Shown piece after piece: positions 38,376 to 40,775 of a stretch of 64,000 nucleotides of DNA. Below the pieces are notes generated by a model, which did no database searches, was not told where the DNA came from, and saw only the letters and a program-made list of their open reading frames with translations. The position numbers and the translations under genes were made by a program. The stretch lies in assembly GCA_010015585.1 (NCBI GenBank), contig ML975149.1; one strand, 5' to 3'. The first letter of the stretch is position 1; each line of letters begins with the position of its first letter. The stretch comes from Eremomyces bilateralis CBS 781.70. Its lineage: Eukaryota.

Positions 38376-38382
38376 TGACTCA
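38376..38382 (+). promoter_or_regulatory. CpcA/Gcn4 response element TGACTCA in the cpcA promoter
   Basis: Exact TGACTCA ~260 bp upstream of uORF1, with a CCAAT box at ~38406-38410; a second TGACTCA at 36840-36846. Confidence 0.65.
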
Positions 38383-38639
38383 CACCTCTGGGGTGGGGCA
38401 TGTAGCCAATCAGAGGCTGGCTTCTATGAAACGTTCAGTGCAATACGGCAACCGCATCCAGAGGCCGCCCGCACACGGCACCCTCGCACATGATCAGCGC
38501 TGGCACGAGTTGGTAGATAAATGCCAACTGCTGCCTCAGGTCCCGTCACTTTTCTCTCTTTCTTTTCCTCCTCTTCATTCCATCAATATTCAACAACAAC
38601 CACATCATCACAACAATCACTGAAGAAAGATCCCCCAAT

Positions 38640-38654
38640 ATGGCGGTCTTTTGA
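38640..38654 (+). promoter_or_regulatory. cpcA uORF1 (MAVF*)
   Basis: ATG GCG GTC TTT TGA, the short first uORF typical of GCN4/cpc-1/cpcA leaders. Confidence 0.85.
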
Positions 38655-38833
38655 TCTTGTTCCACCTTCACTCCCTATTTTCGTCCTTTAAGGTCCAAAA
38701 TAGCTTCACACGCTCCATCTCGGAACTCCACCCACCATCACTCCCCTCAATCTCTAGAGACTCCCCCGGGACCTCTAGCTAACATTCAACCGTTCGACTT
38801 CACGTCGTTCACCACGGCTTCTCACCAGCAACC

Positions 38834-39010
38834 ATGGCTCCCCACTCCAGTTCCTCCAGCCTCAGGGCATCAGAATACTCCATCTACAGCAACCAACCCA
38901 AGCGAATCGTTCCCGCATCAGGACTTCGTGCTCTTCGACAATCTTCCGGCAGCAGCGTCACCAGCTCCGCCTCGTCGACCCAGTGCTCCAACGTCGGCGC
39001 CTTCGTTTAA
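38834..39010 (+). promoter_or_regulatory. cpcA inhibitory uORF2 (58 aa, MAPHSSSSSLRASEYS...)
   Basis: ATG in accATGg context, out of frame with CpcA, ending at TAA 39008-39010, 145 nt before the main ATG. Confidence 0.8.
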
Positions 39011-39155
39011 CTTGGCCAACCAAGGGTTTTACAGCTCTTCGGCTCCGTCTTCGTCTGTTAATATCCAACGACCGCCTCGTCCACCTGTCCCTCTGTTTGC
39101 AAGTAACAGTGCCGGGAATATAAATCAAGCTTCGCAGCCCCGCCCGACCGCAGCT

Positions 39156-39953
39156 ATGAACGGTACTACCTACCGTAACCGGCATCCTCAACCGCACTCG
39201 CTGACCATGATCTCAGACGATTTCAACTTTGACACCGGCCTCGCCGACCCGTTCAACTGGGAAGATGCGACCGTCGGAGCAGGCTTCACCGCCATCAACA
39301 ATGCTCCAGGTTCCACCTCCACCCAAACGGTGTCTCCGAAGGACCTGTTCAACGTCGATCCGCTCGCGTCCGCTCCGCCCTCGGCGGCCTTCACGAACTT
39401 GACGTCTCCGTCCATCAACGGGTCTCCCTTCGTTGGGGACACCTATGATACCTCGCCCATCTTCCAGGATGAGGGCGAAATGGGCGCCCACAACTGGTTC
39501 TCGCTCTTCCCGGACAGCACCGATAAACCATCCGCTCCTCTCGGCGAGCCGATGGTCCGCGACATGAGCAACCAGTCCGCCGCCAACCGTTCGAGCAGCT
39601 CCGCGTCCGACTCACCTGTCACACTCGAGTCTCGCCACCGCTCCGTCGGCTCCGGCAGCTTCTCATCGCTGTCCGGCATCACCAAGTCTCGCCGGCGAAA
39701 GGGTCCGCTCCCGCCGATCGAGGTCGACGGTGGCGACAAGGTGGCTCTCAAGCGCGCTCGAAACACCCTGGCCGCGCGTGACTCCCGCCAGCGCAAGCTC
39801 GAGCATGTCAACTATCTCGAATCGGAGAAAGCGCGCCTCGAGCAGTCCGTCGTCGATTTGACGAGCGAGAACAACTCGCTGCGCGACCGCCTTAACCGTG
39901 CAGAGGCGCGCTTGTCCAACTCGGGCGCCGCGTTCGACGGCAATGTGTTTTGA
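39156..39953 (+). CDS. cpcA: Cross-pathway control bZIP activator CpcA/Cpc-1 (Gcn4 ortholog)
   Basis: Main ATG 39156 and 54-nt intron 39163-39216. Motifs TVSPKDL, SAPPSAAFTNLTSPS, WFSLFP and LPPI...DKVALKRARNTLAARDSRQRK, then a leucine zipper. Confidence 0.95.
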   Translation: MNGTTYRNRHPQPHSLTMISDDFNFDTGLADPFNWEDATVGAGFTAINNAPGSTSTQTVSPKDLFNVDPLASAPPSAAFTNLTSPSINGSPFVGDTYDTSPIFQDEGEMGAHNWFSLFPDSTDKPSAPLGEPMVRDMSNQSAANRSSSSASDSPVTLESRHRSVGSGSFSSLSGITKSRRRKGPLPPIEVDGGDKVALKRARNTLAARDSRQRKLEHVNYLESEKARLEQSVVDLTSENNSLRDRLNRAEARLSNSGAAFDGNVF

Positions 39954-40775
39954 TTCGGGATTGGACAGGTTATCGACGTTATTCTTGGTATTCCCACCCG
40001 GTTGAACGCACATCGGGATGACGATTGTTCATCCACGTATTCTGATCTCCCTTTGGCTGGTGGCTCGTGTCTCTGGTGTGGGGATGCAGCACCACGCCTG
40101 TTCCTCAAAAGTTCTTATGATGTGTGTGCGTGTGGACGGTTCATTGTCTAAGCGGATTCGTCTTCCTTCCGAGGAGGATGTTTCCTGCTCTTAGACCTTT
40201 CCTTGTTTCCTACCTGGTACTACTGTTTGCTTTTATCCACACCACTTCCTCCCTTACCCTGGCCGGTTCTGACGTCTCCCTTCTCGTGAGGGATTGACTC
40301 GTGGCCATGCACTTTGCGCTTCATTTGAGAGAGGTTTTCCGATGCTCATCGCATCTCTGGTTTTGTTCTCGGCTCTGATTGAGTCTAGAGACAGCTTGGG
40401 GTGGTGGTCTCGGTGGATCAACAACGGATTTTAAGTTCGGACTTTCGCTGGCAGGATTAGGGCAGTGCGCCAATTTCAATAAACCTAATCTTGCCTCACT
40501 TTTGTGTTCATGCTGTGCCGTAGATTGTGATGAAGAACGCTGATGTAGTAGATTGTGAACCGAACCCTGCGTACAACTTCAATTGGATATCGAACTGTGG
40601 CTGGCGCCGTCGCTACCGTAGCCAACGCTTTGGCAAGATGTCTTGTATCTCCTCCCTGGACTCCCAAGAACTTCTACCCAGCAACCAACACTCATCTTCC
40701 ACAACACGGCAGTCATCCCATCCCCCATATTTTAATCCCTCTTCCCCTCCATCCTCTCCGCCACACGACGTCACA

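Follow-up and report, generated by a model that had tools for sequence, protein, structure and literature searches.

The cpcA locus and its leader

The window analysed here is a stretch of 64,000 nucleotides from contig ML975149.1 (assembly GCA_010015585.1) of Eremomyces bilateralis CBS 781.70. The region in question is the 5' leader of a Dothideomycete cross-pathway-control bZIP gene, cpcA (cpc-1 in Neurospora crassa), in which a short upstream open reading frame (uORF1) shares the frame of an AUG-less N-terminal extension of CpcA. The CpcA frame forms a stop-to-stop open reading frame of 432 codons (38655..39953, +) that ends with TGA 39951-39953, and exon 2 (39217..39953, +) carries the bZIP region at about 39738-39893. 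Residues 365-410 of the 432-aa frame match bZIP_2 with 26.2 bits (cut-off 22.3), and bZIP_1 scores 27.4, just under its cut-off of 27.6; the product is of the GCN4 bZIP type, and its homologues go under the names cross-pathway control protein 1 and general control protein. The annotated protein of 247 aa (P0009, a hypothetical protein of E. bilateralis CBS 781.70) is identical; it begins at 39156 with the intron spliced, and the annotation therefore leaves out the extension. As the next-best homologue is just 58% identical, the lineage is isolated.

The cpcA transcript extends approximately over 38603..40385 (+), as judged from RNA contigs. No sequencing run was recorded as RNA; run X3 was taken as such from a spliced joint and gene-shaped depth, the GT..AG joint in its contigs identifying the material as spliced RNA. 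Depth in X3 is 0 across 38455-38545 and reaches thousands from the bin 38546-38636 onward. The first contigs start at 38606 (X3) and 38603 (X4, a run presumed to be RNA), with loose ends absent at both places, and the last high-depth contig ends at 40354; such contig ends are a weak hint of the true transcript ends. An X4 contig runs unbroken over 38603-38814 and covers uORF1, so that uORF1 and the whole leader are transcribed and the transcript does not begin downstream of 38700, as is presupposed by an earlier interpretation made from the letters of the window (the sequence-only reading). The ATGs at 38490 and 38521 lie upstream of the covered RNA, and uORF1 therefore carries the first AUG on the transcript.

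uORF1 (38640..38654, +) encodes MAVF followed by a TGA at 38652-38654 (ATG-GCG-GTC-TTT-TGA) and stands in phase 0 with the CpcA frame. Its start codon, uAUG1, lies in a strong context (CCCAAUAUGG, A at -3 and G at +4). The second upstream frame, uORF2 (38834..39010, +), comprises 58 codons plus stop, is in the -1 frame relative to CpcA (offset +2), and overlaps the extension; the context of its uAUG2 (GCAACCAUGG) is also strong. Ivanov et al. 2017 (mBio 8:e00844-17, PMC5487733) described 100 Pezizomycotina cpc-1 homologues, E. bilateralis being outside their species list as available. All 100 have a uORF1 of 3-6 codons and a uORF2 of 35-70 codons (stops included), the latter in the -1 frame, together with an extension of at least 160 codons and no in-frame stops between uAUG2 and the main AUG. 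With 5 and 59 codons including their stops, both upstream frames of the window lie within the published ranges.

The CpcA frame lacks AUG for its first 167 codons, from 38655 to the main ATG at 39156, and is free of stops over 38655-39953, hence also between uAUG2 and the main AUG. The sequence-only reading had held that a single TGA (38652-38654) separates uORF1 from this extension and that in-frame near-cognate codons (NCCs) lie at ATA 38700, ATT 38784, ACG 38802 and ACG 38814; inspection of the sequence confirms each of these positions. The 5'-most, ATA (38700..38702, +, aaaATAg), is a positionally conserved near-cognate codon, here labelled NCC-I. At the place of the published NCC6 (CUG) the window has CTA (38775..38777, +; GGACCUCUAG), which is not near-cognate in E. 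bilateralis; in Eurotiomycetes this place reads GGACCUCUGA (Fig S2A of PMC5487733). The equivalent of NCC7 is ATT (38784..38786, +; GCUAACAUUC, aacATTc in the window). ACG 38802 (ttcACGt) is in frame in a poor context. The equivalent of NCC8 is ACG (38814..38816, +), within UUCACCACGG at 38808-38817; it has A at -3 and G at +4 (accACGg) and sits 20 nt 5' of uAUG2. In the published set, NCC8 (ACG, A at -3 and G at +4) occurs in 98 of 100 species, NCC7 (AUU/AUC/AUA) in 74 and NCC6 (CUG/UUG) in 77 (PMC5487733). The window thus retains NCC7 and lacks NCC6, neither of which is obligatory among the published species.

The conserved coding part of the AUG-less extension (38817..39155, +) is recognised by its pattern of substitution and its invariant residues (W61, D90, F91, L93 and R142-F148). 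Its motifs FDFTSFTT, QQPWLP, DFVLFD and RPPVPLF, which had been singled out earlier as protein-like, are indeed kept in homologues. Several public Dothideomycete CpcA models (P0001-P0008) join the extension to unrelated, ATG-initiated N-termini of 20-120 residues. These added N-termini do not align with one another and are likely to be annotation artefacts around a non-AUG start.

Related leaders, the open frame and the phase of uORF1

Related leaders were collected by scanning metagenome contigs with an alignment of the window frame and eight extension-bearing homologues. Of the 331 matching stretches, 226 encode a relative, and the best 80 of these were kept; many of the contigs are transcript-like (1.5-1.8 kb). 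A tblastn search with the extension peptide of the window found 66 of the 80 loci. Sixty loci and the window were anchored on the ACG of the 'TTAS..W' motif, and 52 loci and the window have an upstream ATG, the nearest of which is almost always that of a 4-codon MAAF/MAVF uORF, 123-231 nt 5' of the ACG. The anchored loci carry the ACG in the same context, and uAUG2 is offset by 2 from the CpcA frame in all of them. Trees were built with FastTree and so carry only local SH-like supports; the window has a long branch of unsure placement. L027 and L031, with aberrant 5' ends and no recognisable uORF1, were left out of all trees. Two metatranscriptome contigs, L058 and L060, combine a leader like that of L008/L002 with a body identical to that of L056. 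These are probably chimeras that arose in assembly, with the join in the conserved ACG region; they are a warning for the use of such contigs in leader evolution, and were excluded from a 49-row tree and from the Markov analysis.

[quoted passage not shown] By this measure the extension 3' of the ACG evolves as coding sequence under purifying selection, in agreement with PMC5487733. In run X5, which represents a nearer relative (still below 90% identity), the indels in the extension and main frame (-3, +3, -12, -9 and +3) are all multiples of three.

Upstream of the ACG, stop codons were counted in 39 distinct leaders, the window included; L047 and L048, whose uORF1 has 19 codons, were not counted. 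Between the uORF1 stop and the ACG, the CpcA frame is stop-free in 38 of the 39, whereas 39 and 37 leaders are interrupted in the other two frames, and 29.7 would be expected from shuffles. The interval was split at a conserved motif, D/K/T-I/L-A/D (GAC-A..-NNN-G). From this motif to the ACG, none of the 39 leaders has a stop in the CpcA frame; in the other frames 39 and 37 have one, and the expectation by shuffling is 27.6. Conservation of the extension frame among related leaders, which the sequence-only reading had called for, was accordingly found: it appears as frame-specific pN/pS 3' of the ACG and as the absence of stops from the upstream near-cognate codon onward.

The codon at the motif, whose position was picked by eye among in-frame near-cognate codons, is near-cognate in 42 of 42 distinct contexts (ATA 21, TTG 9, CTG 7, ATT 4, ACG 1); position -3 is A in 39 of these, and position +4 is G in 34. 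All 16 Leu codons at this place are TTG or CTG. It lies 38-52 codons 5' of NCC8 and 15-45 nt past the uORF1 stop (aligned codon in L001-L077). On this evidence ATA 38700 is likely to be the conserved start of the extension that lies farthest 5' in this group of leaders. The codon is not among NCC6-8 or the other conserved NCCs found in the available text of PMC5487733, where Dothideomycetes are listed as retaining only NCC8.

The spacer between the uORF1 stop and this codon comprises, in the window, 15 open codons (38655..38699, +). Relatives differ in its length modulo 3, and a pN/pS estimate is precluded by its shortness and variability. According to shuffles, a 45-nt stretch such as the one that separates ATA 38700 from the uORF1 stop would by chance lack stops in about four fifths of such leaders.

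The phase of uORF1 relative to the CpcA frame is variable. On a FastTree phylogeny of 51 rows (43 different), 27 rows are in phase 0, 22 in phase 1 and 2 in phase 2, which requires at least 9 changes; without the chimeric-looking L058 and L060, 8 changes are needed on 49 rows, and 7 when L006 is reassigned. The phase 1 of L006 was rejected as evidence of spacer lability: it reflects a single base in a T-run between the motif and the ACG. Sister leaders on the tree differ in phase by one nucleotide (L010, phase 1, -164; L011, phase 0, -165), and L068 (phase 1) is placed in a sister group to L067/L071 (phase 0). The near-identical leaders L053 (phase 2, -208; outside the tree) and L066 (phase 0, -207) differ likewise. 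A well-sampled clade with the uAUG1 context CGAACAAUGG, the one listed for Alternaria and Pyrenophora, is uniformly in phase 1, as are four leaders of another class with 2-3-codon uORF1s; both groups retain uORF1, the near-cognate codons and uORF2. Conservation of the uORF1 phase, on which the sequence-only reading had also relied, thus fails. With 25 of the 39 distinct leaders in phase 0, the window included, and an a-priori chance of 1 in 3, an in-frame uORF1 is the commonest state of a variable character and calls for no more than chance.

Several features of uORF1 itself are kept across phases. Its peptide is strongly conserved as MAAF or MAVF in most related leaders, and a run of pyrimidines usually comes after its stop (TAG/TAA CTYCCY), irrespective of phase. 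The conserved peptide and pyrimidine run suggest a constraint on the coding and termination region of uORF1 itself, perhaps for reinitiation competence. In the L047/L048 lineage uORF1 has 19 codons (MAASLTSS...) rather than 4, as if the stop had been lost, and the remaining leader is kept.

Interpretation of the in-frame uORF1

The leader is best read, with a probability of roughly 0.8, as an ordinary example of the published cpcA architecture, in which the in-frame position of uORF1 is an incidental, evolutionarily labile state of the spacer and not a selected readthrough device. In such a leader, the 4-codon uORF1 in its strong context would capture scanning ribosomes and permit reinitiation, and the long uORF2 that follows would be inhibitory. 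The AUG-less extension would be entered from near-cognate codons 5' of uORF2, the candidate starts in this lineage being ATA 38700, ATT 38784 and ACG 38814, and the main ATG 39156 would be reached via delayed reinitiation under starvation. Which of these starts would be used, and how they would respond to eIF2alpha phosphorylation, is inferred from work on N. crassa. The frame is conserved from the upstream near-cognate codon onward and not across the 15-45-nt spacer, the opposite of what selected readthrough would predict.

A number of observations weigh against this interpretation. 5' of the ACG, as far as the upstream near-cognate codon, pN/pS is indifferent to frame (0.83 versus 0.77 and 0.89, 350 pairs), so that the case for translation there comes from the openness of the frame and the identity of the codons alone. 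Within the spacer, from the uORF1 stop to the motif, a stop interrupts the CpcA frame in just 1 of 39 leaders, where 7.3 would be expected, and the other two frames in 8 and 5. Phase 0 is commoner than one third, and a three-state Markov model prefers unequal stationary frequencies (0.60-0.63, 0.31-0.34 and 0.06; 2dlnL of 9.0 or 6.6 over equal frequencies, df 2), phase statistics which are modest, resting as they do on non-independent metagenomic contigs and a quick tree. The phase-0 excess and the rarely interrupted spacer leave room for a weak in-frame preference, and can also be explained if phase 0 is ancestral and has been lost mostly through 1-nt deletions. The uORF1 stop of the window is UGA, the leakiest stop codon, and is shared with just one other leader (L068). 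Finally, the nearest readable relative of the window is only 54% identical; in the nearer relative of run X5, the stretch 38553-38747 is unaligned (193 versus 197 letters), which leaves the uORF1 phase unreadable; the difference of +4 could lie 5' of uORF1.

The sequence-only reading had proposed three routes to CpcA isoforms. Two of them, reinitiation and non-AUG initiation, belong to the published model, and the leader has the sequence features that this model describes; the third, readthrough of the uORF1 stop, was its sole new claim, the two-uORF arrangement with a non-AUG extension having been published already. On this third route, some ribosomes would decode UGA 38652 as sense and make an AUG-initiated, fully extended CpcA that escapes both reinitiation control and uORF2, with selection favouring phase 0; this is improbable. 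It is equally doubtful, in the wider form, that an in-frame uORF1 is weakly favoured in Dothideomycete cpcA as a small share of the very many ribosomes translating MAVF or MAAF read through, which would yield an AUG-initiated, maximally extended isoform independent of start-codon stringency and of eIF2alpha-dependent reinitiation. The anatomy permits such readthrough, uORF1 being the first AUG on the RNA and in a strong context, and more leaders are in phase 0 than in any other phase (25 of 39, with a model stationary frequency near 0.6). In all phase-0 leaders, moreover, the uORF1 stop is the nearest in-frame stop 5' of the ACG, and in 13 of their 19 distinct types it is a TAG with C as the next base; TAA is more frequent among phase-1 leaders. 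This association vanishes in six independent pairs (2 the same way, 0 opposite, 4 unchanged; p ~0.5), in which neither stop type (TAG/TGA versus TAA) nor a C at +4 tracks phase. The 7-9 phase switches among 49-51 rows, sisters included, and the phase-1 clades that retain every other element also speak against it. In fungi, UGA is leaky when CU comes next, the more so if A and then G follow, and leakiness depends on stop identity and the two downstream bases (PMC4207609); the window has UGA UCU UGU, without this CU. No stimulatory RNA structure is predicted in the 100 nt from the stop (minimum free energy -9.4 kcal/mol, z = -1.4), and 17 of 200 shuffles fold as well or better. Readthrough is far below 0.1% for most genes (PMC5133446), and any readthrough at UGA 38652 would be at background level. 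Neither phase conservation nor stop context nor structure thus supports readthrough of uORF1, which is possible as a low-level trace event. In the literature searched, no description was found of a regulator extended N-terminally through readthrough of a uORF stop; the word 'readthrough' does not occur in PMC5487733, and Dunn et al. 2013 handle uORFs and readthrough as separate matters.

Two further explanations concern how, and from where, the extension is translated. Translation might begin only at about AUU 38784 or ACG 38814, the open frame and conservation farther 5' reflecting a constraint at the RNA level, e.g., reinitiation-promoting elements; this is unlikely, while clearly less so than readthrough. 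AUA is generally a weak start codon, and the frame-indifferent pN/pS 5' of the ACG is what such a constraint would leave. The published MLOGD coding signal, too, extends 5' no further than NCC6 in the available data of PMC5487733. Against this stand the CpcA frame without a single stop from motif to ACG (0 of 39 leaders, against 27.6 expected), an upstream motif whose frame agrees with that of the ACG in every anchored leader except L006, and a motif codon that is always near-cognate, its Leu always TTG or CTG, albeit at a position picked by eye. Entry into the extension by frameshifting, +1/-2 inside uORF2 or from the uORF1 AUG, is the least probable of the alternatives and very unlikely. It would suit the -1 frame of uORF2 at all anchored loci, as in all Pezizomycotina, and frameshifting from a uORF AUG or within uORF2 is the only AUG-dependent route mentioned in the available text of PMC5487733, where it is named as a formal possibility. 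No slippery or shift-prone site was seen, none having been looked for; initiation better accounts for the conserved near-cognate codons and their A at -3 and G at +4, and four NCCs of N. crassa initiated in vitro (PMC5487733).

Comparison with known systems and meaning

The leader resembles that of N. crassa cpc-1 and other Pezizomycotina in having a short uORF1 whose start context is optimal, a long uORF2 in the -1 frame, and an AUG-less in-frame extension of at least 160 codons under purifying selection, with ACG in UUCACCACGG and an AUU. It differs in that uORF1 is in the CpcA frame, whereas that of N. crassa is in frame 2, in having CUA and not CUG at the NCC6 place, and in keeping the AUU, though Dothideomycetes are listed with NCC8 only (PMC5487733). 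The further upstream near-cognate codon (ATA/TTG/CTG) that the window shares with its relatives was not found in the available text of that paper. With S. cerevisiae GCN4 and mammalian ATF4 the gene shares a reinitiation-permissive short uORF followed by an inhibitory one, ahead of a bZIP starvation regulator; GCN4 differs in having four uORFs and neither an N-terminal extension nor non-AUG isoforms (PMC5487733). The fungal UGA CU(A) readthrough cases (Stiebler et al. 2014, PMC4207609) are similar in their UGA stop and in a downstream frame open into functional sequence. Those cases are C-terminal extensions of full-length proteins, dependent on CU and conserved in context and extension, whereas the window has UGA UCU, at the stop of a 4-codon uORF, in an in-frame relation that is not conserved.

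In cpcA of Leptosphaeria maculans, another Dothideomycete (Elliott et al. 2011, PMC3199737), uORF1 likewise has 4 codons (MAAI) and the promoter contains TGACTCA, while its uORF2 is similar to Aspergillus uORF2s. That gene differs in being reported as intronless, and an extension is not discussed in the available text. The uORF positions given for it (-541/-344) were not used for phase, as they are one base off the universal -1 frame of uORF2. In the window, a match to the CpcA/Gcn4 recognition element (CPRE), TGACTCA, lies at 38376..38382 (+), some 225 nt before the 5' end of the RNA. With 6 matches in the window against 9.25 expected, the motif is by itself no more frequent than chance would give. 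The CPRE consensus is documented in cpcA promoters (PMC3199737), and the match is a possible autoregulatory site, which would fit the transcriptional autoregulation reported for cpcA genes. A scan with bacterial promoter and terminator models gave no matches; such models are not relevant to a fungal gene.

The main ATG opens a 7-nt coding part of exon 1 (ATGAACG; 39156..39162, +), followed by a 54-nt GT..AG intron (39163..39216, +) that is in frame and stop-free. A joint at 39161/39216 (cut +1) in X3, with a depth of 9286, indicates intron removal, and an unspliced X3 contig (39133-39244) has a depth of 2241. Spliced and unspliced contigs also coexist in L061/L062, L055/L056 and L024/L030. Among related sequences, an intron after codon 2 (ATG NNN G|GT...) is present in 29 of 48 distinct ones, with a length of ~48-60 nt and in every case in frame and free of stops (L002, L006, L009, L011, L012, L015, L017-L019, L025, L026, L028, L030, L031, L035, L036, L038, L041, L043, L044, L047, L050, L052, L055, L062, L066, L067 and L071); the chance of such an intron being translatable is roughly 1 in 7. 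Retention would therefore insert ~18 residues and not break CpcA or its extended isoforms. The available text of PMC5487733 contains the word 'intron' once, in the methods, and no mention of a translatable cpcA intron, and a literature search for cpcA with intron retention returned no relevant paper.

The gene is one more example of the published architecture, and its annotated 247-aa protein simply omits a known kind of non-AUG extension. Were readthrough of uORF1 true, it would be a new way to make N-terminally extended proteoforms. The by-products of the comparison are a conserved upstream near-cognate codon and an always-translatable intron. Situated right after the main ATG, this intron is such that its splicing never breaks the long isoforms. 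The upstream near-cognate start would lengthen the extension by ~40-50 residues and stands where reinitiation after uORF1 should be inefficient; it bears on the question raised by Ivanov et al. (PMC5487733) of why translation between the two uORFs rises under starvation.

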